Positions 5,058 through 59,151 of a stretch of 64,000 nt of DNA are shown one piece after another; the stretch's first letter is position 1; every line of letters starts with the position of its first letter. The position numbers and the translations under genes are program-made. Source of the DNA: Candidatus Saccharimonadota bacterium (GTDB lineage: Bacteria > Patescibacteriota > Saccharimonadia > Saccharimonadales > Saccharimonadaceae); assembly GCA_017514975.1 (NCBI GenBank), contig JAFWIF010000014.1:52070-116069 (forward strand), written 5' to 3'. The notes beneath the pieces are model-generated. The model ran no database searches, was not told the DNA's origin, and was given only the letters and a program-made list of their open reading frames with translations.

Positions 5058-5087
5058 AAGCACCTAGCGATTTGCTAGGTGCTTTTT
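5058..5087. terminator. Stem-loop terminator between the convergent MIP gene and tsf
   Basis: AAAGCACCTAGC-gattt-GCTAGGTGCTTT is followed by a T-run on the plus strand and is A-flanked on the other side. Confidence 0.6.
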
Positions 5088-12802: not shown

Positions 12803-15800
12803 CTACTGAGCGACGCAGCGGACGGAGAGGCCGTCAGCCCTGTGACCGTAGAAGTTTCGGGGGCCGACGTTGCTACTGCCGAAGTACAGGCTGGGGGCGT
12901 AGCTCGTACCATTTGCGGTAGAAGACCAGAAGAAGCCTTGGCTGCCCTGATAGTACTGCGAGCCAGTGTAGTAGTAGTAGCCTGAGAAGGGGAAGCTAAA
13001 CGGAACGTTTTGCATTGTCGTGCTGCCAGTACTTCCGTTTAAGGCGTAGGTCGTCGTCAGTAGATTGTAGTAGCTCTTCGTTCCTGTATTACTTGGTAGT
13101 TGCCAGCCCTTCGGACATATCGACTGGTCAGCCTCCTCGCCGCTTCCCATTGTCGCTAGCCCTGTTCCTGCCGTTGCCGTATACCAGTTGTAAAGGTTGC
13201 CATAGGTCGTAGCTCTATCCGCGTAAGTTGCATGTTGCGAGAAATCATACATATGCTTGATGTTGGTCGTGTTGCTAGAACCACCTTCATTCCACGCAGC
13301 TCCTGCTTTAGTTTGCGCTGCTGGCATCGTAAAGTTTTGGCTGACGTTTGAATCTTGTGGGGTGAGAACGAGCGGATTCGCTTCGGTAGAATTGTCTCCA
13401 AGGTCGAGGTTTTGCGTCATCCAGCAGTTTCCATCGGCAAGTTTGGAGACAGTGTAGCTTTTGTTGTCGCGGGGGTCGAGAAGAGTGGCGGTGGGAACAA
13501 GGGAAGCGTCCGTAGAGTGCGTGGTTGTAGTGGTACGAGCGGAGACCGAGGGGGTGGTTTCGGCAGCACAGATGGCCGAAGTCATCTCTTGCATGGTCGT
13601 AATGCCGCCAAAAGTCGGGCCGCGTGGAGTCCATGATTCACCTTGCATGGTTTTTTCGACGGTGAGTTTTTCCCAGGTCGGATAGAGCGTAACGTCCGCA
13701 GAAGGCATAATGAAGGAGTCGTTGTTAATGGTGAGATCGGTCGGCGATACGACATGCCAGCCAGCGAAGACATAGTCGGCGCCGACGCAGGTCGGAGTTT
13801 TTTCGATAGTAACAGTCGTGCCGACGACGTAATGGTTGCCACTTGGCATGTTGGCAATACTAGTACAGGCGTCTGAAGAGGAAATGGTGCCAAAGACTAC
13901 ACCTTTTAGAGAGAAGGAGGGAGGGAGAGCGTTACTTGGAGTGACGAGCTTCGTGGCGGCAAAACCAAAACCAGCGAGAAAAGAGAGCGCGAGAAGGCGA
14001 AAAATAAATTTGCGAGTTTTGTTTGCGGCGAAAGAGGTTTTCTTCGAGCAAGACGCAATAGAGATGGGATTTACTATTCGCTTCGGAGCGAAACGGGAGC
14101 GACGCAAGCTTTTCAAGTGACTCATCGCGAGCTTGGTCCACGAAAACTTCTTGGCGAAAAGGAAGAAAGAAAGGACAGCGCCAGCAAGGAGGCCGGAAGC
14201 GATGAAGGGGAAAATGTTAGTAAAAGCAGCGGTTGGTGGGGTGCTGTTTTTTGACCAAGTGGCGACGATTTGGTTATTTTCCTTATAGGCGGACGCTTGG
14301 GCGTCGGTAGCAGAGCTGCCATAATCGAGGACAGCGGTGCGCTGATCGGTAACAGCAGAAGTGTAATCTTGGGGCACGACGACAGTAAAGAGATTGGCGA
14401 CTCTACCACTACCGTCAACAGGAGAAACAGCGTAACTTGCATCAGATGCGGACATATTAATCGTGTATTTTGTATCAGTGGAGATATTGGAGAGAGTGAG
14501 TTGTTGGTTGTGCTTTAGGTAGACCATACAGATGCGCCCGTAAGTACAGGTGGTGGGGTTTACGAAAGAAATGTTCCCGTTCCCGTAGCGAATACTGCCC
14601 TGGTCAAGACCAGAAAGCGCATAGGTTTCACCTTCGATGCCGTCACTAAAGTCGAAGATATAACGAAAATATTCGGAGGTGTTAGCGAGGTCGCCTTGGA
14701 CGAGGCTTTTTAAGGTCAGAGTGGTCTTTGGCGGATCGGAGAATTTGATTTTTACGACAACATTGCCGCTCGGCATAACGAAAGAACCATTGCTGGTGGC
14801 GGAGTTGCCCTCAACGGTGGCACCTTGGACGGTGTAGCTGAGGAGTCGGTAGCCGTCGAACGTTGATTGAGGGAGAGGCGAAATGAGATTAACGATGGAT
14901 CCTGGAGCGTAGTTGGTTTCAGAAGGGAGCGCAAAGCTACTCGGCGCGCGACCGTCGAAGACATAGGAAACTTTGTAGATATCGGCTTTAGACCAGGTTC
15001 CTTCAAGAGTAAGGTTTTTTGTAGGCATAACGAGAGTGTTGTTGGAAATGGTGGCGTCAGTAGTAGTCCAGCCGTTAAAGACGTAGCCGTCGACAGGAGC
15101 GGGCGTGGGGAGCTGAACAGAGAGACCAGATTGAATGGTCTGGCTAGCGGGGAGCTTGGCGGAGACAGGGGCGTCGCCGGTATAGGAGTAATTAAGCGTA
15201 TAGTTATCCGATGAACTTTCATCGCCGATATAAGCGTGGACGGTTTCGGAGAAGAAAGTGCCGTTTTGGTTTGCGATGGTGGCGGTATTAAAGAAATCTT
15301 GGCGGCTGACGGTGGTGGGTAGAGTTGGAGTCTTGGTCTTGATTTCATATTTTACAGTACAAGTTTCGCTGAGACCGGTAAGCTTAATGGTAGCGACACG
15401 AGTCGAGGCGTCGTAGGTCTTGCTGAGGGTGCTTTGGTTAGAGCAGCCTAGAGCCTGCTCGGTACCAAAAGCGAGAAAGGTGAGACCGTCGGGGATTTTA
15501 TCAGTAACAACAACGAGTCCACTTGCGTCATTTGGATTCGAGAAAGTACCATAATCGACAGTAAGGTAGTAGTCGAGAGCAGAATTCTCCTCGAGTCGAG
15601 TACCGCTCGTAACGTCGCCGTAGGCGAAAGATTGGTTGTCTCTGGTATCTTTAAACAGAAATGCTAGAAACGAGCAGGCAAGAAGCACGAGCGAAGCAAA
15701 GACGACGCAGAAGAATTGTTTCTGCTTTTTTGTTCTTCTAAATACCCCCCCCCTAAACGGGGATTTGCTCAAGGAATTTTGCCGACGAGCTCGGCAAAAT

Positions 15801-15817
15801 AGCGAAGATAAGGACAT
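12803..15817 (-). CDS. Composite surface protein: signal anchor, InlB-B/Listeria-Bacteroides repeats, a pilin-like Ig domain, an internal TM-basic loop-TM, and a C-terminal Fibrobacter-type (FISUMP) domain
   Basis: YVFNGWTT and YVFAGWHV repeat motifs; GDLANTSEYFRYIF; C-terminal DPRDNKSYTV...YGNLYNWYTA...CPKGWQLPS...FWSST...GLSVRCV. The RBS is AAGGAG with the ATG at 15817. Confidence 0.7.
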   Translation of the reverse strand: MSLSSLFCRARRQNSLSKSPFRGGVFRRTKKQKQFFCVVFASLVLLACSFLAFLFKDTRDNQSFAYGDVTSGTRLEENSALDYYLTVDYGTFSNPNDASGLVVVTDKIPDGLTFLAFGTEQALGCSNQSTLSKTYDASTRVATIKLTGLSETCTVKYEIKTKTPTLPTTVSRQDFFNTATIANQNGTFFSETVHAYIGDESSSDNYTLNYSYTGDAPVSAKLPASQTIQSGLSVQLPTPAPVDGYVFNGWTTTDATISNNTLVMPTKNLTLEGTWSKADIYKVSYVFDGRAPSSFALPSETNYAPGSIVNLISPLPQSTFDGYRLLSYTVQGATVEGNSATSNGSFVMPSGNVVVKIKFSDPPKTTLTLKSLVQGDLANTSEYFRYIFDFSDGIEGETYALSGLDQGSIRYGNGNISFVNPTTCTYGRICMVYLKHNQQLTLSNISTDTKYTINMSASDASYAVSPVDGSGRVANLFTVVVPQDYTSAVTDQRTAVLDYGSSATDAQASAYKENNQIVATWSKNSTPPTAAFTNIFPFIASGLLAGAVLSFFLFAKKFSWTKLAMSHLKSLRRSRFAPKRIVNPISIASCSKKTSFAANKTRKFIFRLLALSFLAGFGFAATKLVTPSNALPPSFSLKGVVFGTISSSDACTSIANMPSGNHYVVGTTVTIEKTPTCVGADYVFAGWHVVSPTDLTINNDSFIMPSADVTLYPTWEKLTVEKTMQGESWTPRGPTFGGITTMQEMTSAICAAETTPSVSARTTTTTHSTDASLVPTATLLDPRDNKSYTVSKLADGNCWMTQNLDLGDNSTEANPLVLTPQDSNVSQNFTMPAAQTKAGAAWNEGGSSNTTNIKHMYDFSQHATYADRATTYGNLYNWYTATAGTGLATMGSGEEADQSICPKGWQLPSNTGTKSYYNLLTTTYALNGSTGSTTMQNVPFSFPFSGYYYYTGSQYYQGSQGFFWSSTANGTSYAPSLYFGSSNVGPRNFYGHRADGLSVRCVAQ
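15745..15753 (-). repeat. G9 homopolymer (coding strand) inside the signal-peptide n-region; the frame is currently ON
   Basis: Counted directly as nine C on the plus strand. It encodes R-G-G in PFRGGVFRRTKK. Confidence 0.9.
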
Positions 15818-15867
15818 GGTGGAGACTCCTTGTTTTCGTATGTTTATTTTGACCTAATTGTATGCTT

Positions 15868-15928
15868 ATAGTAGCAAAATTCGTAGATTCCGTCAATGCT
15901 TGACTTTTTTGAATTTTTGTGCTATAAT
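15868..15928. promoter_or_regulatory. Back-to-back divergent promoters (cassette copy 1)
   Basis: Minus strand: TTGACG (15896..15891), 17 nt, TACTAT (15873..15868), then leader AGGTCAAAATAAACA (15855..15841). Plus strand: TTGACT (15900..15905), 17 nt, TATAAT (15923..15928). Confidence 0.5.
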
Positions 15929-15934
15929 GAGGAG

Positions 15935-15971
15935 ATAGTAGTGTCTTTAGATTCCTGAAGGCGCGGTTTTT
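15935..15971 (+). ncRNA. Candidate short hairpin-terminated transcript (copy 1)
   Basis: A 10-bp stem GTGTCTTTAG-ATTC-CTGAAGGCGC is followed by GGTTTTTGG, starting about 7 nt after the plus-strand TATAAT. Confidence 0.25.
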
Positions 15972-15974
15972 GGA

Positions 15975-17327
15975 TTAGGAGAGGGCGTCTTTGCGCTTTA
16001 AGAGAGTGTGGTATTGGACGGCAAAGCGATGACTTTCATCATCGATACGGGAAAGAAGTTTGGCAAGGTGGCTATCGGAGGGAAATTCGAGAAGGTGAAA
16101 TTGGTCGGGAGCGGCGAGTCGAGAGATTGGGGCTGAAATAGTTGTGGGATAGTAGATTTTGACGGGGGCGTTCTTGCCGTGGTCGCCACTTTTGTCGCGG
16201 GCAATAACGGGGATGTTTTCGGGAACGAGAAGGGGGAGGACGGCGGCAAGCTGGGCTTTGGAGCCGTCGAGGAGAATGAGATCGGGGCGACCCCAGTCGC
16301 TCAGATGACGGAGACGACGAGAAAGAACTTCGCGGAGCGATTCTGGATCGTTGTTTTGCTGTTTTTTTAGCTTGAAGCGACGATATTTAGTGCGATCGGC
16401 AACGCCATTGATAAAACATACCATTGAGCCAGTAACATTGGTGCCGGATTGGTGACTAATATCGTAACCCTCAATGCGAACGGGGGGCTGGTCGAGATTT
16501 AAGAGAGATTGAAGATCTTTTAGAGCTTGGTCGTTGGAAATGTCTAAAAATTCTTTGTCAGAAAAGACAATTTTAGTGCCGATACCTTTGATGCCAAACA
16601 GCTGATTGCGATATTTTGCTGCAAGTTCATAATCTTGATTTAGAGCCGCCTCGCGCATTAGTTTTTCTAGGTCGCGTAGTAATTTTTTGCGACTTCCCTT
16701 TAGATAAGAGACCAAACGGCGCAAGCTGCGACGATACTCGAGTGGAGTTGTTTTGCCGATTTCGATGCCTGGAGTCAAACCAAGATCAGTATCAAGAGTT
16801 TTGCGTCCGCTATAAGGGCGATCATAATACGGGAATACTTTGCGAAGAATGCGGAGAGCGCGCGTAATTGCGGTCTTGCCATAATACGGACCATAATAGT
16901 CGGCGCCGTCATCTTCTGGGTTGCGAGTAATTGTAAGATCAGGAACATCGGCTTTCATATTGATGCGAACATAGCTGACGCTTTTGTCATCACGGAGAAG
17001 AATGTTCCATTTTGGCTTGTAGCGCTTGATCATTTCGCTCTCTAAGAAAAGCGCATCCATCTCGGTATCGACTACGAGCCAATCGATGTCGGCAATTTCG
17101 GCGACGAGAGCACGCGTTTTGGGGTCTTTGCGTTCTGGGCTTTGAAAATATTGGCGAACGCGATTTCTAAGGATAGCGGCCTTGCCGACATAAATGACCT
17201 GACCAGTCGCATCTTTATGAAAGTAAACACCTGGCTCCTTAGGCAAAGCACGCAAGGTGTCGCGCAAGTGCTGAGACAAGCCACTGCGGCGGCGCCGAGG
17301 CTCGTGCGAAGTAGCGTCCGAGGACAT
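15975..17327 (-). CDS. uvrC: Excinuclease ABC subunit C, short form without the C-terminal HhH region
   Basis: GIY-YIG block (GVYFHKDATGQVIYVGKAAILRNRVRQYF), a UVR segment (YELAAKYRNQL), and an RNase H-like endonuclease region. The protein ends at 450 aa. Confidence 0.8.
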   Translation of the reverse strand: MSSDATSHEPRRRRSGLSQHLRDTLRALPKEPGVYFHKDATGQVIYVGKAAILRNRVRQYFQSPERKDPKTRALVAEIADIDWLVVDTEMDALFLESEMIKRYKPKWNILLRDDKSVSYVRINMKADVPDLTITRNPEDDGADYYGPYYGKTAITRALRILRKVFPYYDRPYSGRKTLDTDLGLTPGIEIGKTTPLEYRRSLRRLVSYLKGSRKKLLRDLEKLMREAALNQDYELAAKYRNQLFGIKGIGTKIVFSDKEFLDISNDQALKDLQSLLNLDQPPVRIEGYDISHQSGTNVTGSMVCFINGVADRTKYRRFKLKKQQNNDPESLREVLSRRLRHLSDWGRPDLILLDGSKAQLAAVLPLLVPENIPVIARDKSGDHGKNAPVKIYYPTTISAPISRLAAPDQFHLLEFPSDSHLAKLLSRIDDESHRFAVQYHTLLKRKDALS

Positions 17328-19470: not shown

Positions 19471-22224
19471 TTATTTTGATTGGCGCAATCTTTGCGCGAT
19501 CAGTACGACGCCGCCGAGACTCGTGACGGCTACAGCAATCGCGCCGAGAGCGGGCCAGGCCTTGGTTGAGACAGTGAGACCAGTTGGAGGCGGGGCGGCC
19601 TTGGTGTTCGTGAAAGCGATGGAAATATCCGAGCCTAGAGAATTTATCGTGTAGCGTCGGCCGTTGGTACTAGTTTGTCCGACTTTGTAGCTTGTTTCGT
19701 AGCCGTCAGGGGCATAATCTACTTCTTCGATTTCAATCTTTGAGCCAGCCGGGAGAGTAGTGAGCTGTTTAATATTGCGATGCTTGAGCGTGAAGGTATA
19801 ACTGCCATCGTTGTTAGAAGTAAAGCCTTCGAAATTTGAGAGGTCGACAAGGTCACCGCTTCCGCCGTCTTTGGTAACCTTTATTTTATAGGTGAAATCT
19901 TTTGAGGTGTTGGCGAGGTCGCCTTTGACGAAGTTAGAGATTTCGAGGCCGTATGAAGACTTTGAGTTGACAAAAGTGGAAGTAATGTCGCTGTCGCCGA
20001 TAACGCCATGATCGTTGGTTTTCGAGGTCAGAGTCCAGCCTGTTTTGTTTTCTTCGATAATTTCATATTCATAGCCTTGCGGAAGCTGCAAGGTCTTGGT
20101 ACCGTTTTGCGGCAAGGAGAATGAATAGTAGCCGTTCTCATCGGGCTGACCAAAGAAAGAAGAGAGGTCGTATGGTTTTCTGTAGAGTAAACTAGATACT
20201 CCCTCGTTTCCTTCCGCGCCGCACACGAGGCTTGGACTTCTCCAACCATTTGGGTTCTCATACCAATAGCCGTCATCAGAATACCACTCACCGTATCCGC
20301 CAGCGCTATACCATTTATACTCGTTGATGTTTTTGCCATTGATATTTAGATCTATGGTACGCTGTAGTCCATTGAGGTAATTCCACATATCTAAAGCTTT
20401 CTCGAAGTCATCAGAATCACGAGTCTTGCTCTCACCCCAAACCGAGCGTCTATGCCCGCTCGCGGCGTCTATTAGTCTACCGTTAATCTTGGTGGTAGCA
20501 TCCGTAAGTCTTACCGTTATATTATGAGTAGAGCCATCATCCCCTTGGGAGTAAATATATTCCTCAAAATACACACAACCATAATCAAATGCTCTAACTT
20601 TATAATTAAATTGATCGCTCGTATTTATGTCGGTTTCTTTCTTAATAGTAAGATTTTGTTTGGGTATCTCTTCGAATACAACATTAATAATATAGTCCTT
20701 TTGTATATTGCTTAGACTATATAGACGATTCGTCTCGACAGACACATCGATGCCGACTCCGTCGACGGTTAAGCTTTTTATTCTGTATCCTTCGTTGGGC
20801 CGATAATATATATTCTTTGAGGCTCCGTAGGCAACGGTCGTAGATTCGGTAATTGTGCCATTAACGGCACTCGTAGTTATGTTGTACTTTGGAACGATTA
20901 TATACGGGTCAGCCGCTGTGCCGGTGCCACCGTCGTAGGTTGTACCGGGCCTTAGAGAGATGACTGGACGTACGCCGAGCAGAGAATAGTAGCCTGCAAG
21001 GTGGGTCGCCCAATCGTTCGTCATGGCGCCGCCTGGATTAAGACTAGCAACTGATACATACCTAACGTTAGGCACAGTATAGTGGCTTGGCGACATCGAC
21101 CAATAGGGCTCGCCCGTGTCACGGGCAGTGTTATTATTTATCATACTCATCTCGCTGGCGGTCGCTAATCCTATGGGGTAAGTTAGTTTTGCTTTTGTGT
21201 TTTCGACAGAAAATTGATCGGTCAAGTTCGTACAGCTATAATCGTTTGTAATGCCCGTAAACGTAAAATATGACCAAGTTCCGTTAGGATTCCAACCGCC
21301 AGAGTTGGTATTTTTTGGAGAACGATCATTGCAATAAACAGCGTCCTCTAAAAAGGCTGTGTATCCGGTTAAGTTGTTTCTGTACCAGTTATCGACTACC
21401 GTCTTGATAGCGCTATTGTTCGTATTAACATTATCTGCATAGAGCATATCGTGAATAGCTTGCTCAATGGTCTTACCGCCACTAAGTTCGATATACCAAT
21501 CGCTTCGGTGATAGTATCTTACGGTCTCACAAGTACCAGTACCGTTATTGCAGCTATAGTGATGAGTATTGTCTATGTATACGTCAGTATCAATCAAGGT
21601 ATATACGCCATTAGAATATGCGACTCCATTGCCAGCTAAAGTTCCGCTGGCGGGCGCGCCATACTTGTCTGGATATTGAACATTATACATATAACCAGCA
21701 TTAGCCAACGATGGAGTGCTAGCATTAGATATCCAAGTTTTGTTAATAATGCCTCCATAGGGCATACTGCACGTGGCTGAAGACGTGGAGTTGCCATTAT
21801 AAAGAAGTTTTATGCCGCCAGTATCGGTCGTTCTTATCATCTGCCAACACTTGCCGGCAAACACAACATTCCATTTATCCAAAAGCTGCTTGCCCTGCGT
21901 TGTGTCGTTTTCGATTGGGGTCGTAAAGTAATAGATGTCTTTTGGGCCTGCGCCAGCTAAAGTATCGTTGTGTGCGCCAGTATATTTGGCGGCGAGACCA
22001 CCTGTTTCGGCTTCGTTTTTAATAACGTTATAGAGGAGATTTTCGGGTTCGCTTGTATTGCTTGATTCGGCATGAGAATGACGAGTTGCGAGGAGAATTG
22101 CGCCAGTGGCGACGACGAGAAGGACGGAGAAAAGCGAAAAGAAAAGAAGTTTGCGTTTTTTGGTAAAGTTGCTGCTTCTTCTATGTGATATTAACCCCCC
22201 CCCATTACGCAAAAAGATTCCCAT
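19471..22224 (-). CDS. Large surface protein: Cys-rich N-terminal domain, pilin-like Ig domains, PPTG-type C-terminal sorting signal
   Basis: Start moved to the ATG at 22224 because the track start (TTG at 22296) is the promoter -35 box. Signal anchor KKRKLLFFSLFSVLLVV; GDLANTSKDFTYKIKV; C-terminus PPPTGL plus TM plus RLRQSK. Confidence 0.7.
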   Translation of the reverse strand: MGIFLRNGGGLISHRRSSNFTKKRKLLFFSLFSVLLVVATGAILLATRHSHAESSNTSEPENLLYNVIKNEAETGGLAAKYTGAHNDTLAGAGPKDIYYFTTPIENDTTQGKQLLDKWNVVFAGKCWQMIRTTDTGGIKLLYNGNSTSSATCSMPYGGIINKTWISNASTPSLANAGYMYNVQYPDKYGAPASGTLAGNGVAYSNGVYTLIDTDVYIDNTHHYSCNNGTGTCETVRYYHRSDWYIELSGGKTIEQAIHDMLYADNVNTNNSAIKTVVDNWYRNNLTGYTAFLEDAVYCNDRSPKNTNSGGWNPNGTWSYFTFTGITNDYSCTNLTDQFSVENTKAKLTYPIGLATASEMSMINNNTARDTGEPYWSMSPSHYTVPNVRYVSVASLNPGGAMTNDWATHLAGYYSLLGVRPVISLRPGTTYDGGTGTAADPYIIVPKYNITTSAVNGTITESTTVAYGASKNIYYRPNEGYRIKSLTVDGVGIDVSVETNRLYSLSNIQKDYIINVVFEEIPKQNLTIKKETDINTSDQFNYKVRAFDYGCVYFEEYIYSQGDDGSTHNITVRLTDATTKINGRLIDAASGHRRSVWGESKTRDSDDFEKALDMWNYLNGLQRTIDLNINGKNINEYKWYSAGGYGEWYSDDGYWYENPNGWRSPSLVCGAEGNEGVSSLLYRKPYDLSSFFGQPDENGYYSFSLPQNGTKTLQLPQGYEYEIIEENKTGWTLTSKTNDHGVIGDSDITSTFVNSKSSYGLEISNFVKGDLANTSKDFTYKIKVTKDGGSGDLVDLSNFEGFTSNNDGSYTFTLKHRNIKQLTTLPAGSKIEIEEVDYAPDGYETSYKVGQTSTNGRRYTINSLGSDISIAFTNTKAAPPPTGLTVSTKAWPALGAIAVAVTSLGGVVLIAQRLRQSK
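22195..22203 (-). repeat. G9 homopolymer in the signal-peptide n-region; the frame is currently ON
   Basis: Nine C on the plus strand. It encodes GGG in MGIFLRNGGGLISH. Confidence 0.9.
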
Positions 22225-22267
22225 CTGTTTTTTCTTTCTTTGTTTATTTTGACCTAAGCTTGGTTTT

Positions 22268-22328
22268 AGGATAGCATAGAGTTTTGATTCCGTCAATGCT
22301 TGACATTTTTTAGTTTTTGTGATAGGAT
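22268..22328. promoter_or_regulatory. Back-to-back divergent promoters (cassette copy 2)
   Basis: Minus strand: TTGACG (22296..22291), 17 nt, TATCCT (22273..22268), leader AGGTCAAAATAAACA (22255..22241). Plus strand: TTGACA (22300..22305), 17 nt, TAGGAT (22323..22328). Confidence 0.5.
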
Positions 22329-22334
22329 AGAAAG

Positions 22335-22371
22335 ATGAATGCCTCGAGGCGACGAGAGGTGAGGGTTTTTT
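22335..22371 (+). ncRNA. Candidate short hairpin-terminated transcript (copy 2)
   Basis: AGAAAGATGAAT, then a GCCTC-10 nt-GAGGT stem, then GAGGGTTTTTT. Confidence 0.25.
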
Positions 22372-22421
22372 GATAGTTTGGTTGAGTTATATGCTTGGTG
22401 CGAAGAGCGTTTTTGCGGACT

Positions 22422-24940
22422 TTAAGCTTTGCGCCTAATGAGAAAGATGGCGGCGAGGAGGCCAGCAAGGCTTGAGCCGAGAATAATGAAGGGGAGCTTG
22501 AGGGCAGATTTTGAGTGATCGGAAGTTTTTGGGTTAGAGTCTAGGGATTTCGGAGTAGTAGCCTGACTGTGCTCTATAGTCGTGGTGTTTTTTGAATCTT
22601 CGGTGATTTCAGTGTTTTGTGTAGGATTGTCTACAGGTTTTTCTGCGGGGGATTGATCTTTTTGCCAGTTAGCAGTGAAAGTTTTGTCGCCAGTAGTGCC
22701 TTTGGGGATTTGAAGCTGCTTTTGAGGAGGAGAGTTTGGGTCATCAGCGTCAGTCCAGCCGAGAAAAGTGTAACCTGGGCGGGCAGGAGTAGCGAGAGTG
22801 ATAGTGTCGGATTCGATAGTGTAGACAGAAGGATTGTCGGGGGAGTTGGTGGCGGGGCTGGTTGGGCCGTCTGGGCTAGAGGAATCGTCAGGATTAGCGG
22901 GGGCGTCATTGAGATTGTAGGTGATTTGATAGTTGATGGTCTCCCAAGTTGGCGCAATGGTGAGGTTTGAGGTGACACTATCGTAGGACTTGTTCCAAGC
23001 TTTGAAGGTATAGCCGGTTTTGGTGGGGCTGACGGGAGGGGTGGCGGAGGAGCCATAGGGAATGGTTTCGGTTTTTAAGGCAGTGCTTTCGTCATCAGTG
23101 AAAGTAACGGTGAAGATACGTTTATTGGCGAGGAAAAGCTTGACCCCCTCGGTGTCGGAATTTGAGATGGTGAATTCGGGACTGATGAGAGCCTCTTGAT
23201 CCTGGTCGTAACATTGAGTAGCAGAGTTCGGGCAGGAGTCGGCGCTAGCGGAGAGAGAGTAGACGGAACTAGCGGGGGCGGTCTGGACAAGGCGATAGGT
23301 GCCAGTGCCGAGGTTTTGGAAATCTACCTGACCGTCGGAATTGGTTTGGCGAGAGAGAGGATTGCTGTCGTTTGGAGTATAATCCTGCCAAGTGATATCG
23401 TTGCCAGTTCCCTGTTTGAGCTGAAGCTTTAAGGTTGCGTTTTCGAGAAGACGCTTGGTGTCGCTATCCGAAACGAAGGCGGAGACGGAGAAAGTTGGAG
23501 GAGTAACGATAGCGCTAGGATCGATACTTTCGATAGTGACGGTACGAGTGCTTGGCTTTGATGACACGCCGTTACGGGTAATGACGGCGGTCGACTGGAA
23601 GGTGCGGTCCTCTAGAGCGGTACCATAATCGCAAGCAACGTACGCGGTGCTGTATGGGTTTTGCCCCAATGCGCTATTTTCGCCAAATGCAGAGAGGTAA
23701 GCTTGGACGAGGCGGCCGTAATCCTCGGCGTCGGCGTAGCCGTTATTGATGTGGTACTTTGCGGCCTTGTCTGCCCATGCTTCGGCGCTTTGTTGCGGAG
23801 TGTCGATCCCGACACGACCATGATAGATAATAAAAGTCATAGAATCGCCGTTATTATAGTAGCCGTATTGGCGCGGAGTCGCGGTAACTCGAGATTTAAA
23901 ATCGCTATACGATTCGTTAGATGTGGGCTTTATTTCTGTGTATTCGCCGGTGATGGTGGCATAGTTGTAGTTAGAGCTTGATAAAGTGAGGTCGTCTAGG
24001 TCGTAAACTATACGAGCAGACGCAATAATTGAGTGGATATTCATAGCGATTGCATCTTGGCAAGTAATCTCGATGTAAGTATCGGACGGCTCTGGAGAAT
24101 AGCTGTCCCCTTCAGACTCGAAAAGACTTTTTTCGATAGCGTGCGCAGTGCCATCGACGTAATAGTAGACCGCTCTGTTATTGGATTTGGTAGAGAGGTT
24201 ATAGCCGTTGTGTATAGAGAGAGGATTAAGCGTGCGTGGATTAACGAAAAAGTTGATTGAGGTTTCGGGCTGATTGTTGAGACGAATTTGAGTATAACGA
24301 AAATCGTTGTTGCCGATTGGATGGAGAGTGCTACCTGTGTTGATGTGGATATTCTGCGCGCCAGAGCGCCCAGCCATGTTTTCATTAAAGACAAAGCGGA
24401 TAAGTGGTTCGCCGTCCGGAAAGACAGTATAAGAACCGACAGTCGTGCCGGATTCGCCAATAACAGGAACGGCGCCCGAAGCGACTCGCGAGACACTGCC
24501 CTTAGTAGACTTCAGGGCGATATCTACAGTATCGTTGCCAGTGAAGGTGGCGCCGTGCTTTAGGGACAAGTCTAATACTAGGCTCAGCGCGGTAGCTTCG
24601 GAAGTATTAGACTTGACCGGATAGTCGTCGGGATTCGTGGAAGCGTTTTCGCCAAGGATAGTGCTGATTTCGCCATTGGTAGCGCCAGTTAAGGTGTAAC
24701 TTTTAAGGGTTACTTCTGCTTCGAGAGACTGAGCAGAAGTAGCCGGGGCTATTAAAGCTACGAAGGAGAAAGATAAGGTCAAAATTGAGATAATGAAGAA
24801 TGGTTGAAGTTTGCGGAGTTTGAGAAGAATGTGGGGAGTTTGGATTTTTGGCTTTCTCGAGAAGCCAGATACTATGGTGTTTAGTAGACTTTTATACCCC
24901 CCCCCATGGAGATTAATGCGGTGCGAAATAGAGAGAACAT
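22422..24940 (-). CDS. MSCRAMM-like adhesin, phase-variable and currently frameshifted (OFF) at a G9 tract
   Basis: AAGGAG plus the ATG at 24940 opens MFSLFRTALISMGGG and stops 5 codons after the tract. The large ORF 22422..24782 is in the +1 frame relative to that ATG. It contains a Cna-B/SpaA-like domain, two Listeria-Bacteroides repeats, and NPKT plus TM plus RRKA. Confidence 0.65.
24897..24905 (-). repeat. G9 homopolymer that puts the adhesin gene out of frame
   Basis: Nine C on the plus strand. There are 158 nt between the upstream ATG and the first codon of the long ORF, which is 2 mod 3, so G10 or G7 would restore the frame. Confidence 0.9.
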
Positions 24941-24992
24941 GGCGTGGAGACTCCTTTGTTTTTATTGTTTATTTTGACCTTGTTATTGTTTT

Positions 24993-25092
24993 AGAGTAGC
25001 AGAGTTCTTTGATTACGTCAATGCTTGATAATTTGTTAGATTATTTTATTATAATGGTTTTGCTTGACATTTTTGGGGTTTTGTGATACAAT
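24993..25092. promoter_or_regulatory. Divergent promoters (cassette copy 3, with a duplicated plus-strand -35 region)
   Basis: Minus strand: TTGACG (25021..25016), 17 nt, TACTCT (24998..24993), leader AGGTCAAAATAAACA (24980..24966). Plus strand: TTGACA (25064..25069), 17 nt, TACAAT (25087..25092). Confidence 0.5.
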
Positions 25093-25098
25093 AGAAGG

Positions 25099-25147
25099 AT
25101 GTAGCGCCTCGAGGGAGCGAGAGGCGTGGGGTTTTGGTGGTTTTCGG
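25099..25147 (+). ncRNA. Candidate short hairpin-terminated transcript (copy 3)
   Basis: AGAAGGATGTAG, then a CGCCTC-10 nt-GAGGCG stem, then TGGGGTTTTGGTGGTTTT. Confidence 0.3.
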
Positions 25148-27451: not shown

Positions 27452-27504
27452 CGTTCTGTCCTTTTTTGATTCTTTGATGTTTATTTTGACCTTGTTATTG
27501 TTTT

Positions 27505-27533
27505 AGAGTAGCAGATTTTGAGGATTTCGTCAA
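27505..27533 (-). promoter_or_regulatory. Cassette copy 4 promoter (unidirectional)
   Basis: TTGACG (27533..27528), 17 nt, TACTCT (27510..27505), leader AGGTCAAAATAAACA (27492..27478). The TGA stop of the upstream 1622-aa gene lies inside the -35 box. Confidence 0.5.
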
Positions 27534-30500
27534 TGCTTATTTTTAGCAAATACTTTACTGGAAACATAGATTGCGCATAGAGTAAATGCGCCGAACGCAG
27601 CAAGCAAGATGAGCGGTTTTTGATCTAAGGATACGCCAGTTATAACGGTCTCACCTTTATTGTTTATATATGTAACGCTTTGGTCTTCTTCTAATGGCTG
27701 TTTGGTGATAGTATTTCCCGTCGTAGTATCCCTAATAACACCGCCAGCCGTCTTGGCGATCTGATAACTCTCAGTGTATTCGGTGTCCGTTTCTACGATT
27801 GTGTATTTATAACCTCTGACGATATTTTTTATAGTCGCCGCTTCGTTGTGTTTGAGCTTGATAGTTGAGCCGTTATCGATTTCGGAAGACGAGCCATTTT
27901 TTTCTACGGTAAGCTTTCCTTCTAAAGGAGTATCATCGTCGTAAACAGTAATGCGATATTCAAATTCCCTATTAACGTCTGCCAAGCTACCGGTCACTTT
28001 CTTTTTGATAGTTAAATTATGTTTTATTTTTTCGTTTTGAATGTTTAAGGCGACTTCTTTTGTGGTGTTATTTCTCGCAATCACTACGGTTTTGTCCTCT
28101 ATCGATTGGTAATTTGCGGGAACTGCTTCGTGGAGAATATAGCTTCCTGCGGGAAGGTGCTCAAATTTAGCTTGCCCTAAGGTATCGGTATTTTTAGTGA
28201 CATTAAGCTCTTCGCCTAAATCGGAAGTTCCAGACAAAGTAAAGCTTACTCCAGACATCGCCTCACTGGTGTCTTTGTCCGTTTTATTAATCGTTAAATC
28301 ACCGTACGCTTTTGTGTTTGTTCTGGCCTCTTCTATGATGGGCATATAGTCGACTGATATAGAGTGGTTTTTGTGGACATCGTCAAAGACTACTCTGACC
28401 TTCTTAGGATTAACGCTGTCTTTGGTAAAGGTATATGTCTTGCCGCCAAAGACATAAGTAGCTACGCCGTCGCTAAACGATAGATTTTTAAACATTACGG
28501 TAATTCCATCAATTGTGATTTTTTCGATCTCCCAACCGTCGTCCGGTACCATAGCTAAGGTGTTTGAGTCGCCTATACCCATAGACACATCGCGCCGAAT
28601 TGGGCTCATTGAGCAATTGTCGAGATAATCATAGGCTTCGATATATAAATCGCCGCCAGTACCATGCGCCTGTTGAAGCCGAACGTAAACCGACGAATCG
28701 AACAAAGTTGTGCCGACGTTTCTAAGGTCATTTACCGTTGAACTACCAGTCCACCTTAGCGTAGAGCCTTTGGAGTCTAGAAGAACGGCAAACCCAGTAT
28801 CAAACGTACCGTTGTCAGCTCTTTTGGTGGTATATCTTTTTCCGCTTCGAGCAGCATAAGCGGTAGCATCTTGAATGGTTGAAAAACCGTTTGAGTTGTT
28901 ATTGGTTCCACCTATTTTTTTGCCAGCTTCGTCTCTCGTGCTGTGGTATGTAAAAGCGCTAAAGCGTATGCCGTCAGCATTTGATCCGTTAAACCTTCTC
29001 TCTGCATCGATCGCCATATCGCGCCCAAATACATAACCCTCGTAAATACTGCCAGTCATGCTTGCGTGGTCATACTTTGGAATTACGGCGAAACTTTTAG
29101 AACCAGATACAATCTCCATGCCCTCTGCATATTCGATGCCACCAGATCTCCTTCCCCAAACATTTTCGGCGCTTGCCAAATCTAAATCTTTAGCGGAATA
29201 CGAGATAATACCATCGACGGGATTATTGTTTTTATCTACCACCTGGATAGTAAATGTCTTAGAATTTCCTATGGCGTTGCGCATCTTGAACGTACCGTTC
29301 GCGGAATCAGTGTTTTTGTTGCTAGCGCTTGGGCTAAAAACGTACTGAGGCCATCTCATGGTTTCTCTACCGCCATTGTTAAACTCTATCTGAATGCTGC
29401 TGTTGAGGCTATTCGCATTTTCTTGGACGACATAGGGGACATTTTCGAGTTTATCAGTCGCCGATTCCATGGTCATTTCGTTAACCGTAAACACTACATC
29501 TCCGATTGACCCATCCGGCAATACGGCAGCATCATAATAAACAATCTGATAAATATATCCGTCTACGTCGTTGGTGATAACATTTTGTCCAGCATGTTCG
29601 CCAGTCTTATAATATGAGACTTTGGTGTTTCCATATTCTACTACGCTATCGTCGTTGTGCTCGGCGTCCGTAGTCGCGGTATCACCGTTGTTGATTAGCG
29701 CCGCATAGCCCTCGTCTGTTAACTGGCCAAATTCAGGAGTACCATATGCTCCTGGAGCGCCCACGCCTTTTATGTACGATTTTAATGACCCTAAATACGC
29801 AATCATACCATTATCGTCTGCGCGGCCCGTATATATATCGTCAGAAATCTTAGCTCCATCGACCCCGATTTCGCTATCGCCTTTTTTAACTAAATGGAAG
29901 GGGCTATTTTCTGGAAAAATGAGCGAGGCATTATTGAATTTGATTTTATTGCTGTTAATAAATACGTTTCCATACGGAAGAATTTTGGCAAAATCGTTAG
30001 GGTCAGAATCTAGATCTGTATGCGGTGGGCTGTTTTCTTGGATGGACGATTTTGCGTTCCCTCCAATATATAAGCCGCCATCAAGCTTTTTCTCATAATA
30101 GCTCTTGATAGTAGAATATGTCCCACTGTCGCTATCGTAATCATAGTATACATAATTTTCGTTGTTGTTATAGACTGCGCAAGCATCTTGGTTAGTTACG
30201 GTAGAGGAGCCCTCGTCTAGCGAAGAGCCGGTTGCATTAAAATTGACATCGTAGACCACGTCATCGAGTTCGTACCCAGACGGAGCTTCAATTTCTTGGT
30301 AATGATAGGCGCCAAGAGGTAAATCTTTAATCGTGTACTCACCGTTACCGTCAGTAGTAAACTCTGACTCTACCGACTGTCCGTCTAGCGTTTCTCCCCA
30401 GAAACGATATTTGGCGTTAGGGAGGAGAGTGTTATCGGTCGCGTCGCGTTTAGTTAATTTTAAGCTTCCTTTGGCCAAGTTATCTTCCATAACAACGGCA

Positions 30501-32682: not shown

Positions 32683-32716
32683 AACAATCCCGCGCAATCG
32701 TGCGGGATTGTTTTTT
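32683..32716. terminator. Strong stem-loop terminator after tRNA-Lys, also facing the convergent small gene
   Basis: AACAATCCCGCGC-aatc-GTGCGGGATTGTT followed by TTTTTG. Confidence 0.65.
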
Positions 32717-42131: not shown

Positions 42132-42139
42132 TCTATAAG

Positions 42140-42181
42140 CCAACCAAAACTCTGCGTCTTCAGAGTCTGAAGGCGCTACAT
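42140..42181 (-). ncRNA. Candidate short hairpin-terminated transcript (copy 4)
   Basis: The minus strand reads AGAAGTATGTAG-GCGCCTTCAG-ACT-CTGAAGACGC-AGAGTTTTGGTTGG and starts about 7 nt after the minus-strand TATAAT. Confidence 0.3.
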
Positions 42182-42187
42182 ACTTCT

Positions 42188-42248
42188 ATTATAGCACAAA
42201 ATCTAAAAAATATCAAGCATTGACGGTATCCTCAAAAACTGCTTAAAT
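42188..42248. promoter_or_regulatory. Back-to-back divergent promoters (cassette copy 6, plus-strand gene)
   Basis: Plus strand: TTGACG (42220..42225), 17 nt, TTAAAT (42243..42248), leader AGGTCAAAATAAA (42260..42272). Minus strand: TTGATA (42216..42211), 17 nt, TATAAT (42193..42188). Confidence 0.5.
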
Positions 42249-42298
42249 AAAATTACAATAGGTCAAAATAAAAAATACAAAAATACAAGGAAACATCT

Positions 42299-45200
42299 AT
42301 GCTTTTTCGAGGTGCCCCTAAAAAGGCGAAACTTACGAAACTACGTTTATCTATCCTAATTTTCGCCTTCGCTGTTATCGGCATCGCAATAACCAGTGTC
42401 GCGCTTGAGTCGAAGGCTCGCCTCTCTGCCTTTGCTGACACCTATCAAACTATTGCTGCGCCTAGCGTTAACAATGGCGCATCCTTTGACAACTATACAT
42501 TGACTCCCGACAACTCGAGTATTGCCGACCCCACAATCCTAAAAGACGGTAATTCGTATTACATCGCAAAGACTACGAGCTGGCGCGGCGTGTATATTCA
42601 TAAATCTGACGATTTTAAAGACTGGAAAACTGGCTTTTATGGACTCTCCTGTAATGCTAATTTCACCGGTAGCGGCGACGATACGCGCATTACGCAATTT
42701 TCCTGTCCTGGTCACGATTTTACTAGCGAGCTGTCTAGTGGCCAGACGGGGGTTGGCTTCTGGGCGCCAGAGATTTACAAGCACAATAATAAATTCTATC
42801 TTTTAGTGACTTATATGCCGACGTTCGGCAATGCTCCTCGCGACCGCTATGCTCAACTGTATCTTGCCGAAGCTGATACACTTTCTGCTGGTAGTTTTAC
42901 GAACTTTCGACATATCGATGTGGCTGCTCAGCACGTTATCGATGGTAATCTGTTCTTTGATGATGATGGACGCATCTATCTCTATTTCAAAGACGAAAGC
43001 GAAGCTAATAATTGGACAATTAAAGTCGTCGAACTCGATGCGAACTTCAACCGCAAGACCGCTCCAAAAATCGTCTTAAATAGCAAGGAGCTCGGTTGGG
43101 AAAGTAGCTTCAATGAGGGGAGTTGGATGATGAAAAAGAATGGCACTTACTATCTAATGTATTCGGCGAATTATTATAAATGTACTGACTACGAAATCGG
43201 TTACGCGACTGCGACCTCGCCAACCGCACTCTTTGAAAAACAAAACACTGCGTTCCCGCTCCTAAGCGGTTATGATGCGAATCTTAAATGTGCTCGCAAT
43301 AACGGCGAGATGGGTTCATGGGATAGCGACAATCATGTCTATGGCACTGGCCATCATTCTGTATTAAAAGTTTCCGAAGATGAATATTATATACTCTATC
43401 ACTCAATCAACTACAATGATGGCAGCCCGGCGACTTTAGACGAGAAATATAAGAATCGTCGCCTAAATGCCGACCGCCTCGGTTTTGATAGCAATGGTCG
43501 CATTTTCGTCAACGGTCCTACCACGCGTAAGCAGCCCCTACCCTCTGGCACAAACGGCTTCTATCAACTTTCTAATAACTACTATTCTCTAAACGCTAGC
43601 GGTAGCACTAATGCCGACGTCCTCCGCGATAAAATCAACTACAATTCGAAAAACACCGCTGAAGTCTTTAATGCCGCCCCGACCTCTACCGTCGGCTCGC
43701 TTACTACCGATACTTTAACTTATACGCTCAACAAACGCATGGATATTGCGGACATCTGGCTCTATGCTAACCCTGCCAAGTCCGAACTCTCGCGTATGCA
43801 GACCAGTACTGCCCAAGGCGCCGCACCAAACTTTTCGGGTGTTACCGCCGACGTCATAATAAACAACCAGTACATCATGCAGGACGTTAACCTCGGTAAT
43901 GATGCTGTTGCAAAAATTCAACTCCCCAATGCTAGTCAAATTCCTACGCATATTGGCACAATCAAAGTAAAACTCTCCAAAGCTACGCCTTTGACCGAGA
44001 CCATCCTCGTCTCAAACACTCTCAAGACTTACGAAGACCCCGTATCATTCTGCGCTATCACCTTCGACGCTAACGGTGGAAATACTGCCTCGACGCAGCT
44101 TGTCAGTTGCGGCGGCTCTCTGTCAAATCTCCCCTCGTCAAGTCGCGACGGCTATACTTTTGACGGCTGGTATACTGCTAAAACAGGCGGCAATAAGCTC
44201 ACGACCGCCACTGTCATCAATAACGACATCGTTTACTACGCTCACTGGACGCAGAACCCAACAATCAATGCGCAATGTAGCGATATCGACTACGGCGAAA
44301 TCGTATTTATCGGTGATTCATATGGTAATGCCTATAATGCCGAAAATTTGCGCACCAATGTAATTGAAAAGTCATGGCCAAACCAAACGGCCGCTCTTCT
44401 CGGCGCGCAAAATTTCGTCAATATGTCCTACGGCGGAGCGGGCTTTGCAAGAAGTGCAAATAGCGTCGCGGACACCTATTTTGACACAATGATTGGCCTC
44501 ACCGCAGATAAAGTCTCTGATAAAGCAAAGGTTCGTTGGATTGTAACTCAGGGCGGCTATAACGATCAAAGCAAAAGCTCGACCGACATCCTCGCTCATG
44601 CTGCCAACTTCTCGTCAGCTGCTACGAGTCTGTATCCAAATGCTCGACTTGCAATCGGTATGATTGGCTGGGATTTACGCGAAAATATCCAGAACCAAAT
44701 CACCAACAATTCTCTACCGATATACCGAACCATCGCTGAAGATTATGGCATGCAATATATCGACGGTTCCGATACGACTCTTCATAATCGCCCAGAATAT
44801 TTCTCAAACGACAATTTCCATCCGAACGTTACTGGCGAGCTTGCCATCGCCGAACATACCGCAAACTTTCTCTGTGAGAATACCCTCAATATTAATTATC
44901 ATGTCGGCAATGAACTGAGCAAAACTATCTATACGACAGGAAAAACCAATAAAGTCAAGAGCATTTCCTCGACCGCTAGCCGCAGCTTTAAAGGTTGGGC
45001 GACTAGTCCTGACGGCGCAGTGAAGTACGCGGGCAATACACTCATTAACGACGACTTCATTAAGGCCAATAAAGTCGTTGACCTCTATGCGGTCTTTGCA
45101 GACATTCATTCCGTTGCCTTCACCGACGGCCAAGGCAACACTCTCAAGACCGAAGCCGTCGAGCATGGCTCTTCTGCTACTCCGCCTGCTAATCCTAGCC

Positions 45201-45850
45201 GTCCCGGTTATACCTTTGCTGGCTGGAATAAATCCCATGATAATATTGCATCTGACACCGTGATTGAGGCCGCATGGACTCCTCACGTTCTCTATGTCCG
45301 CTACAACGCCAACGGGGGCATCATGGCCGAAGAACACGATAGCAACATCAGCCTTGATCAAGACGGCTGGGTCGTCAACACTAACGTTGGTTGGGCTAGC
45401 GACGAAGCCGGCAATTACCGCGGTCGCTTTGGTGCTTATGGTGGCAGTATACTCAATACCGGTCTTACCGATTACAATAACTCTAACTATCTTAACCTCA
45501 TTCGCGCAGGTCATCATATTGAGAAAGGTAAGGAATGGAACACTAAGCCAGATGGTACAGGCATCAGCTATAATCAAGCCACCGTTTATCAAGTGTCAGA
45601 CCTCGCCGACCTCGCTCATTCCGACCAAACCCTTATCCTATACGCCAATTGGCAACAAGACCCTGTGGAAAAACCTGTGGAAAACCCTACTGCTCAACCC
45701 TCTTCGCAAAATAATTCTCAGAAAGCTAAAGCCGCTATCAGCAACCCTAAAACTGCCAGTAGCGACAGCCTCCTCAAGCTTATCGTCGCCGCTCTTGTCG
45801 GCTCCAGCACGCTCGCTGCTCTCTACTTTATATTTCTCCGTCGCCGTTAA
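42299..45850 (+). CDS. Surface-anchored multi-enzyme: GH43-like propeller, Listeria-Bacteroides repeats, SGNH/GDSL esterase, NPKT sorting signal
   Basis: FWAPEIYKHNNKFYL and NEGSWMMKKNGTYYLMYS (GH43-like); DGYTFDGWYT and PGYTFAGWNK repeats; VFIGDSYGN...GGYND...DNFHPN (SGNH); C-terminus NPKTAS plus TM plus RRR. Confidence 0.7.
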   Translation: MLFRGAPKKAKLTKLRLSILIFAFAVIGIAITSVALESKARLSAFADTYQTIAAPSVNNGASFDNYTLTPDNSSIADPTILKDGNSYYIAKTTSWRGVYIHKSDDFKDWKTGFYGLSCNANFTGSGDDTRITQFSCPGHDFTSELSSGQTGVGFWAPEIYKHNNKFYLLVTYMPTFGNAPRDRYAQLYLAEADTLSAGSFTNFRHIDVAAQHVIDGNLFFDDDGRIYLYFKDESEANNWTIKVVELDANFNRKTAPKIVLNSKELGWESSFNEGSWMMKKNGTYYLMYSANYYKCTDYEIGYATATSPTALFEKQNTAFPLLSGYDANLKCARNNGEMGSWDSDNHVYGTGHHSVLKVSEDEYYILYHSINYNDGSPATLDEKYKNRRLNADRLGFDSNGRIFVNGPTTRKQPLPSGTNGFYQLSNNYYSLNASGSTNADVLRDKINYNSKNTAEVFNAAPTSTVGSLTTDTLTYTLNKRMDIADIWLYANPAKSELSRMQTSTAQGAAPNFSGVTADVIINNQYIMQDVNLGNDAVAKIQLPNASQIPTHIGTIKVKLSKATPLTETILVSNTLKTYEDPVSFCAITFDANGGNTASTQLVSCGGSLSNLPSSSRDGYTFDGWYTAKTGGNKLTTATVINNDIVYYAHWTQNPTINAQCSDIDYGEIVFIGDSYGNAYNAENLRTNVIEKSWPNQTAALLGAQNFVNMSYGGAGFARSANSVADTYFDTMIGLTADKVSDKAKVRWIVTQGGYNDQSKSSTDILAHAANFSSAATSLYPNARLAIGMIGWDLRENIQNQITNNSLPIYRTIAEDYGMQYIDGSDTTLHNRPEYFSNDNFHPNVTGELAIAEHTANFLCENTLNINYHVGNELSKTIYTTGKTNKVKSISSTASRSFKGWATSPDGAVKYAGNTLINDDFIKANKVVDLYAVFADIHSVAFTDGQGNTLKTEAVEHGSSATPPANPSRPGYTFAGWNKSHDNIASDTVIEAAWTPHVLYVRYNANGGIMAEEHDSNISLDQDGWVVNTNVGWASDEAGNYRGRFGAYGGSILNTGLTDYNNSNYLNLIRAGHHIEKGKEWNTKPDGTGISYNQATVYQVSDLADLAHSDQTLILYANWQQDPVEKPVENPTAQPSSQNNSQKAKAAISNPKTASSDSLLKLIVAALVGSSTLAALYFIFLRRR

Positions 45851-56610: not shown

Positions 56611-56781
56611 GAACATCTCTCCACGCTTCCAAAACGCTTATGCTTAGTGTTTTCGAACTGATGTAATAACTTCAAGTTAATTGCAGTGCAGAGTTCTGCG
56701 CCTTTCTCCAGCGAGAGGGGGTAGCCCCTCATATTTTATGCGCAGATTCTACATAAAGGCTTATAGCTTTGCTGGAGCCGT

Positions 56782-56840
56782 AGAGGCTTAAAACAATGAC
56801 AATGAAGAAAATAAAAGAAATGCAATGTCAATGGTATAAT
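56782..56840 (+). repeat. 59-nt direct repeat, copy 1 (extended -10 promoter-like, or the start of a small ORF)
   Basis: AGAGGCTTAAAACAATGACAATGAAGAAAATAAAAGAAATGCAATGTCAATGGTATAAT differs from copy 2 at 3 positions. Confidence 0.8.
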
Positions 56841-56990
56841 TATAATGCGTGGCGACACGATGTTCTATAAGAAAGGCGTTACAGATCCGGATTACTGTGT
56901 ACTAAAATTCACCGCAACAAACGGCCGATATTTATTGTGACCTAAAAACCGAAGACTTCAAAGTGTAATCAAAAAAACGAAAGGGAATAA

Positions 56991-57458: not shown

Positions 57459-57476
57459 TAAAAATAAGCGCCCCGC

Positions 57477-57535
57477 AGAGGCTTAAAACAATGGCAATGA
57501 AGAAAATAAAAGAAAAACAATGTCAATGGTATAAT
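57477..57535 (+). repeat. 59-nt direct repeat, copy 2
   Basis: AGAGGCTTAAAACAATGGCAATGAAGAAAATAAAAGAAAAACAATGTCAATGGTATAAT. Confidence 0.8.
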
Positions 57536-57579
57536 AGTAACTATAATATTGAGCAATTATATCTTTAAAGGAGACCTCT

Positions 57580-58885: not shown

Positions 58886-59151
58886 AATACCTTACCCTAA
58901 ATTATGTATTATTATACCACATCATAATAATCAAAATAAATCGTTTATACTGGTAGTGAAGAAACTTGTCAAACCGTCACCACTCATAAACGAGTAGATA
59001 AGGCCATAATTAATATATACTAAACTAAGGACACTGAAGAGAATTCGAGGAAGGGGTCGTTTTTCGTATTTGCTAAGGAACTTTGCGGACAAAATGGATG
59101 AAAAATATTTTGCGAAAGTCAAAATCATCGTACTCGATTTATAGTAAAATT

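Follow-up and report, generated by a model that had tools for sequence, protein, structure and literature searches.

Saccharibacteria have tiny genomes with few regulators and attach to host bacteria by means of their surface proteins. In a 64-kb stretch (hereafter the window) of one such genome, that of an uncultured Candidatus Saccharibacteria (TM7) organism, four large surface-protein genes are preceded by a strong promoter oriented away from the gene, with a hairpin and a T-run following almost at once. This raises the question of what a promoter that appears to lead nowhere might be for. A sequence-only reading had taken the four units for a candidate family of small RNAs, naming a transcriptional insulator and a promoter-competition element among the other possible roles. 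Our preferred answer, to which we give a probability of roughly 45%, is that the units belong to a self-insulated divergent promoter acting in cis, the RNA of ~35–40 nt being a by-product.

The outward promoters within a two-faced module

The four units span 15900–15973 on the plus strand (site A), 22300–22372 (+, site B), 25064–25137 (+, site C), and 42216–42144 on the minus strand (site D). Each opens with a promoter where the sequence-only reading had placed one: TTGACT-17-(TGc)TATAAT at A (15900–15928, +), TTGACA-17-(TGa)TAGGAT at B (22300–22328, +), TTGACA-17-(TGa)TACAAT at C (25064–25092, +), and TTGATA-17-(TGc)TATAAT at D (42216–42188, −). All four have a TG-extended, sigma-70-type −10 element and a 17-bp spacer. 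TG aside, the match to consensus is 10/12 at B and 11/12 at the other three sites, and a promoter scan of the whole window returned exactly three 11/12 matches, which are those of A, C, and D. Moreover, a strong promoter followed by a hairpin and a T-run within 30 nt was found in the 64-kb window only at these four sites. The same type of extended −10, TGnTA(A/T)AAT, precedes three of the window's four tRNA genes. This kind of promoter is therefore plausibly active in this organism, and we infer that the outward promoters drive transcription. As had been claimed, no gene lies downstream on the same strand, the four promoters facing only the 3′ ends of upstream genes encoded on the opposite strand. 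At site C, a 39-bp tandem duplication has given rise to a proximal outward promoter (TTGATA-16-TATTAT, 25025–25052, +), which stands back to back with the gene-ward −35 at 25016–25021. The duplication moved the near-consensus outward promoter further out, with the hairpin still directly downstream of it.

Alignment revealed that sites A–D are paralogous copies rather than independent events, and that they form the outer half of a single module of ~150–190 bp. The module is present five times (A to E), its inner half being the promoter and conserved 5′ UTR box, often with poly-G, of five surface genes. Read along the surface-gene strand, the outer half is composed of an A-run, the hairpin, 12 nt, the outward −10, 17 bp, and the outward −35. 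A TGC/GCA triplet leads into the inner half, where the −35 TTGACG, 17 bp, and TGc-TAnnnT are followed after ~13 nt by AGGTCAAAATAAAC, then by a variable 5′ UTR with a ribosome-binding site and the ATG. The −35 hexamers of the two promoters stand back to back with 3 bp between them, in a GTCAA-NNN-TTGAC palindrome, and the predicted inner and outward start sites lie ~74 bp apart. For example, at site A the palindrome is GTCAA-TGC-TTGAC, and the gene-ward −35, 3 bp from the outward one, belongs to the promoter TTGACG-17-(TGc)TACTAT (15868–15896, −), which would drive the surface gene at 12803–15817. The fifth copy, module E (27479–27540, −), has kept the inner promoter and UTR box and is missing both the outward promoter and the hairpin. 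The stop codon (27530–27532) of the upstream gene, which encodes a 1,624-aa pilin-like protein, overlaps its conserved −35 block.

The 5′ UTR box is found on the gene strand at 15842–15855 (−), 22242–22255, 24967–24980, 27479–27492, and 42260–42273, with a pairwise identity of 0.97. It lies ~35 bp from the invariant −35 block, and TTGAC occurs three times per module, ~51 bp apart. The box might serve a regulon of surface genes, either as an operator or as an RNA element.

The window has a GC content of 44.7%. It encodes large surface proteins at 12.8–32.4 kb and at the 42.3-kb locus, in which SpaA, Listeria-Bacteroides repeat, DUF7601, and GH43 domains are found. The five module-driven proteins share only 24–41% pairwise identity, confined to short domain stretches, which argues that the module has been kept or spread independently of the coding sequences. 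Within the first 12–25 codons, surface genes A, B, and C contain a poly-G(9) tract on the gene strand (15745–15753, 22195–22203, and 24897–24905). The tracts of A and B are in frame. That of C throws the reading frame off, so that a stop occurs at codon 20; an ORF of 786 aa would be recovered with G10 or G7. These tracts look like slipped-strand phase variation. For surface protein B, the closest homologues (44–45% identity over ~42% of the query) are encoded on two contigs of a low-GC gut organism, one of them from a Hadza sample; named homologues, lower in the list, come from Bacilli bacterium MAGs. Both contigs carry poly-G at the same early position (L012 6041–6049 and L013 4421–4430); the two samples differ in tract length, G9 versus G10, and the gene call changes accordingly. 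This suggests that protein B belongs to a family of horizontally shared, phase-variable surface genes. The module was not found upstream of the protein B homologues in gut and rumen Bacilli MAGs.

The gene upstream of the module is co-directional with the surface gene in all four cases: uvrC at A, other surface genes at B and C, and truB at D. Consequently, the hairpins sit where a terminator of the upstream gene would be expected. The opposite-strand stop codon lies 1 nt (A), 50 nt (B), 19 nt (C), and 12 nt (D) past the closing GG or G of the tail, at 15975–15977 (−) for uvrC, at 25157 for the surface gene upstream of C, and ending at 42131 for truB. In relatives, the corresponding loci are the tightly spaced uvrC-holin-secG-SBP and RNase J-PedC-truB-prfB, and no hairpin follows uvrC or truB there. 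UvrC and TruB of the window have 100% matches named as Candidatus Saccharibacteria, and the next-best relatives share only ~70–76% identity; the C-terminal residues of both proteins and the position of their stop codons match those of the relatives. Since the loci of relatives are contiguous and hairpin-free, the module and its gene were inserted directly after the conserved uvrC and truB stop codons, and the hairpin and T-run are the outer edge of the inserted segment. An ancestral uvrC or truB terminator was considered as the origin of the hairpin and rejected because relatives have none. The inserted segments span 12803–15975 and 42132–45850 and interrupt operons that relatives have in unbroken form; of uvrC-holin-secG-SBP, this genome lacks the holin-like gene. 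Other assemblies of the same organism are 100% identical, which leaves no population variation to use.

Hairpins, T-runs, and conservation on the outward strand

The hairpin follows the outward −10 after 12–13 nt (GAGGAGATAGTA at A, AGAAAGATGAA at B, AGAAGGATGTAG at C, and AGAAGTATGTA at D), and a run of four to six T comes next on the same strand, in agreement with the sequence-only reading. At site A, the hairpin is GTGTCTTTAG-ATTC-CTGAAGGCGC (15941–15964, +), with three G-U pairs, and the tail is GG-TTTTT-GG (T5 at 15967–15971, ending at 15973). Site B has TGCCTC-(10-nt loop)-GAGGTG (22340–22361, +), with two wobble pairs, and AGGG-TTTTTT-G (T6 at 22366–22371, ending at 22372). Site C has CGCCTC-(10-nt loop)-GAGGCG (25105–25126, +) and TGGGG-TTTT-GG (T4 at 25132–25135, ending at 25137). 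Site D has GCGCCTTCAG-ACT-CTGAAGACGC (42176–42154, −), with one C-A mismatch on the outward strand and perfect pairing on the truB strand, and AGAG-TTTT-GG (T4 at 42149–42146, ending at 42144). The four RNA sequences proposed earlier are all present. They had been listed in a different order from the promoters, and we have corrected the pairing.

Folding energies of the outward-strand hairpins are −8.2 to −12.9 kcal/mol. When the two strands are compared, the hairpins of A, B, and C are more stable on the outward strand and that of D on the opposite one. At A, a hairpin forms only on the outward strand (−12.6 kcal/mol on the plus strand vs. −0.6 to −1.2 on the minus strand); at B, it is weak on the sense strand (−4.8 kcal/mol); at C, the values are −16.6 (z −3.3) on the plus and −9.6 on the minus strand; and at D, the truB strand reaches −15.2 kcal/mol (z −4.7). 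Substitutions at the stem base are mostly C to T when read on the outward strand. There they preserve pairing as G-U, and on the opposite strand they produce A-C mismatches; D is again reversed. The basal helix is paired in 92.6% of cells on the outward strand vs. 77.8% on the opposite strand, a difference that is not statistically significant with four copies.

An intrinsic terminator typically has a U-rich tract of ~7–9 nt that begins 0–2 nt past the stem. The four units have the stable stem-loop on the transcribed strand and lack an adjacent U-tract of 7–9 nt, their T-runs being only 4–6 T long and lying 2–5 nt past the stem, behind a spacer that is mostly G. Outward-strand T-tail scores are 0.45–1.41, compared with 3.3–4.4 for canonical terminators in the same window. 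Among the latter, those at 5059–5083 and after tRNA-Lys (32683–32712) have the T-run directly after the stem, and GAAGTCCC-ATT-GGGACTTC (59164–59182) is a perfect bidirectional terminator with T-runs on both strands. This last element, at the junction of two minus-strand ORFs (58931–59173 and 59221–59622), serves as an internal control for the canonical layout. Only site A comes near to it, if its stem is extended by G-U wobble pairs. Since the T-runs lie 2–5 nt from the stem, termination at A–D would be non-canonical; the units had been called hairpin-terminated, of which the hairpin and T-run on the outward strand hold good, and the U-runs do not adjoin the stems as that term would imply. 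The sense-strand tails are CU-rich, with T-scores of 1.2–2.45 and no U-run, and A is unfolded on that strand, so the units are not bidirectional terminators of canonical type. The earlier remark that the U-runs are on the wrong strand to end the convergent genes is borne out, runs of 4–6 T being present on the outward strand only. We regard termination on the outward strand, possibly partial or factor-assisted, as the better reading.

Which parts of the unit are conserved was assessed by mean pairwise identity among copies A–D. Against a background of 0.45–0.51 in variable segments, identity is 1.00 in the inner −35, 0.81 in the outward spacer, and 0.78 in the outward −10. It falls to ~0.6 in the 12 nt after the outward −10, to 0.64–0.67 in the stem bases, and to 0.45 at the hairpin apex, and is 0.67 in the tail, where the TTTT core is invariant in all four copies. 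Two earlier statements need adjusting. The conserved tail stands insofar as its T4 core is invariant, and the supposedly conserved 5′ segment after the −10 is at ~0.6 only. Likewise, stems that differ yet stay paired were reported, and pairing is indeed largely kept and the apices differ; the stem bases, however, are homologous (GCGCCT...AGGCGC in all four, the apical part being switched between two types), and D has the C-A mismatch. Constraint thus appears to act on the outward promoter and on having a hairpin and T-run, and not on the sequence of the RNA. Because only four paralogous copies and identical assemblies are at hand, and orthologous copies were not found, covariation and pair counting have no statistical power here.

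Insulated promoter or small RNA

In the self-insulated promoter that we favor, the inner face (TTGACG-17-TGnTAnnnT and the 5′ UTR box) would drive the surface-protein gene, and the outer face, a stronger near-consensus TG-extended promoter, would initiate away from it. A polymerase leaving outward would transcribe ~5–7 nt, then the hairpin, then the short U-run, and would release a dead-end RNA of ~35–40 nt. The hairpin and U-run would act as a built-in insulator against antisense transcription into the upstream gene, which would allow the module to sit 1–50 nt behind the stop codon of a co-directional gene. The module E copy, which abuts its upstream gene and is devoid of outward promoter and hairpin alike, favors such a pairing of the two. 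In turn, the strong outward promoter may set or limit the firing of the surface-gene promoter in cis, and might also block read-through from the upstream gene. A polymerase typically covers about −55 to +20. With predicted starts ~74 bp apart, the two promoters therefore probably cannot be occupied simultaneously. The idea of steric competition is weakened by site C, whose strongest outward promoter is displaced outward by 39 bp and is probably beyond steric range. The cis effect on the surface-gene promoter is proposed from this arrangement, as is the benefit of having an outward promoter at all. Against the favored reading stand the offset T-runs, the hairpin of D, which folds better on the opposite strand, and the consideration that a merely harmful outward promoter could more simply be lost by mutation than insulated. 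Still, the ideas of an insulator and of promoter competition fit the anatomy of the module better than the small-RNA label.

That label, which in its strict form would have the product pair in trans with mRNAs or bind a protein, perhaps coordinating the surface genes, seems to us unlikely. A very strong promoter, a hairpin, and a U-run with no gene downstream are admittedly the minimal layout of a small-RNA gene; the promoter is conserved above background; an 11-mer, ATGTAGCGCCT, is common to C and D; and at C, the hairpin-adjacent promoter stayed near-consensus after the tandem duplication. However, with a start 6–8 nt past the −10, the predicted RNA is ~35–40 nt long, rather than the 40–50 nt first estimated for what is indeed a short hairpin/U-run unit of about 40 nt, and its 5′ tail is only 5–7 nt. 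The purine block AGAAGG would then be mostly untranscribed discriminator. A conserved single-stranded seed is not apparent, since identity in the initially transcribed segment is ~0.6, no higher than in the untranscribed spacer (0.81), and drops to background at the apex (0.45). Complementarity to the surface-gene leaders or elsewhere in the 64-kb window is limited to chance-level 9–11-mers, none of them common to the copies. No unit matched Rfam at any threshold. A covariance model built from the four copies, with which the window was scanned with filters off, detected no further copy there, nor in 110 kb of other loci (relatives, the two contigs with homologues of protein B, and flanks of this genome). 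This earlier suggestion thus yielded nothing beyond the original four. A further copy was likewise not found in ~12 kb of this genome flanking the window, and a strong promoter-to-terminator unit was not found in ~50 kb from three relatives (~75% UvrC identity). When the module was sought by exact pattern in GTDB representative genomes, JGI metagenomes, and IMG/VR, there were no matches or only chance ones in unrelated GC-rich or coding DNA, and blastn searches of PLSDB plasmids and GenBank phages did not find it. In the collections searched, the units are therefore confined to this strain, and a trans-acting family, as originally proposed, is not borne out. We know of no earlier small-RNA family in the Saccharibacteria phylum, and a literature search found none. 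The covariance model also gave a weak match at 24823–24851 (+; 17.7 bits, E 0.08; AGAAGAATGTGGGGAGTTTGGATTTTTGG), which resembles unit C without its hairpin. This match falls in the leader-coding part of gene C and is probably due to chance.

If termination were inefficient, a long antisense RNA stabilized by its 5′-proximal hairpin might damp the upstream gene, which we consider quite unlikely. U-runs offset from the stems and poor tail scores would favor read-through, and the hairpin lies ~5–7 nt from the predicted 5′ end, as do the stem-loops that protect bacterial mRNAs. At B and C, the upstream genes also encode surface proteins, so that one might damp its neighbor. At A and D, however, the RNA would act on uvrC and truB, housekeeping genes that there is no obvious reason to silence. 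Further points against this reading are the invariant T4 core, a tail at 0.67 vs. 0.45 for background, and an element that ends exactly at the T-run. It is improbable, too, that the hairpins are (bidirectional) terminators of the upstream genes, with the outward promoter an incidental feature of an AT-rich UP-element region of the surface promoter. The hairpins do occupy the expected position, the outward spacer corresponds to about −45 to −62 of the surface promoter, D is perfect on the truB strand, and the pyrimidine-rich sense tails score no worse than the outward ones. The weak or nearly absent folding of B and A on the sense strand and the restriction of the T-runs to the outward strand count against it, as do the hairpin-free uvrC and truB loci of relatives, which imply that the hairpin came with the module. 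Furthermore, the −35, the exact 17-bp spacing, the TG, and the −10 have been kept in four diverged copies, beyond what an AT-rich accident would leave.

The least probable explanation is a relic. Reduced genomes carry remnants of deleted genes, and the units could be the promoter and terminator of a small divergent gene, deleted before the module was copied, and have no present function. An ATG-TAG pair between the purine block and the hairpin, which had been noted for two copies, is indeed present, namely in C and D; in B, an ORF of 12 codons runs through the hairpin. However, the SD-like AAGGA abuts the ATG with a spacing of 0–1 nt, so that there is no credible ribosome-binding layout. A start-stop mini-ORF was also rejected as an explanation in its own right, the ATG-TAG occurring in two copies only, with the SD-like block against the ATG and the likely start site inside. 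In addition, an identity of ~0.8 in the promoter vs. ~0.45–0.5 in neighboring segments argues for ongoing selection and against a relic. Readings as an integron attC-like site or as terminal inverted repeats were dropped by eye because the core motifs are absent.

Relation to known promoter and terminator arrangements

The module appears to be a portable variant of divergent promoters combined with insulating terminators, specific to this Saccharibacteria lineage. As in divergent and bidirectional promoters, two sigma-70-type promoters fire in opposite directions from one short region; in such systems, a polymerase in one orientation can exclude the other, and one direction often yields a non-coding RNA. 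The bidirectional promoters of Warman, Grainger, and colleagues reportedly have overlapping −10 elements, with starts ~18 bp apart. Here, by contrast, the −35s are back to back (3 bp) and the starts ~74 bp apart, which places the module outside that class, and the non-coding direction is the stronger one, with its own hairpin and U-run 12–13 nt past the −10. In those promoters, the key elements are described as coinciding on opposite strands (bioRxiv 10.1101/2020.01.31.928960). The outer edge resembles insulating intrinsic terminators in having a GC-containing stem-loop followed by a U-run, placed against transcription into a neighbor, and differs from them in its short (4–6 U), offset (2–5 nt) U-run and modest stems (−8 to −13 kcal/mol). 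Competition for RNA polymerase upon divergent initiation is documented in Escherichia coli, where it affects the level and noise of expression (PMC12825309).

A strong outward promoter beside a weaker gene promoter, giving a short stem-loop RNA, is reminiscent of IS10 pOUT and its RNA-OUT, which is stable. However, the IS10 promoters pIN and pOUT are oriented toward one another, and the antisense target of RNA-OUT is the transposase mRNA at its 5′ end, whereas here the promoters diverge and our duplex and seed search found no sequence complementary to the neighboring mRNA in the short RNA. In vitro, on promoter-terminator units of 38 bp, polymerase does not leave the DNA and is able to start again from a nearby promoter in either orientation (PMC6978380 and PMC7957599). 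The units described here resemble these in their ~38-nt transcription unit ending at a (putative) terminator hairpin; the recycling units, unlike them, are synthetic E. coli templates, and no natural element is known to have been assigned this role. It is conceivable, as a long shot, that the outer face serves as a "polymerase launch pad." The near-consensus promoter would capture polymerase, which would terminate after ~38 nt, probably still with sigma, be released on the DNA ~110 bp from the surface-gene promoter, and reinitiate there by one-dimensional diffusion and flipping. The same long odds apply to a lineage-specific family of very small RNAs controlling the phase-variable surface genes of an episymbiont.

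If the self-insulated promoter is correct, it would show how new phase-variable surface genes can be dropped behind housekeeping genes without disturbing them. The module would also lend itself to studying, in a natural setting, how polymerase competes or is recycled between divergent promoters.

Two observations concern other parts of the window. An unrelated promoter repeat occurs in two copies (56770–56850 and 57470–57550; ...AGAGGCTTAAAACAATG.CAATGAAGAAAATAAAAGAAA..CAATGTCAATGGTATAAT...), the second of which has a minus-strand hairpin (57465–57485) with an adjacent T-run just upstream of the promoter, between two plus-strand genes; a promoter facing this hairpin is not evident there. At the end of the window (60037–64000 and L009 4150–7259), a gene for a YobI-type ATPase of 990 aa precedes type I restriction-modification genes (N6_Mtase and Methylase_S) and a gene for an RHH protein, a cluster that is probably a defence island.
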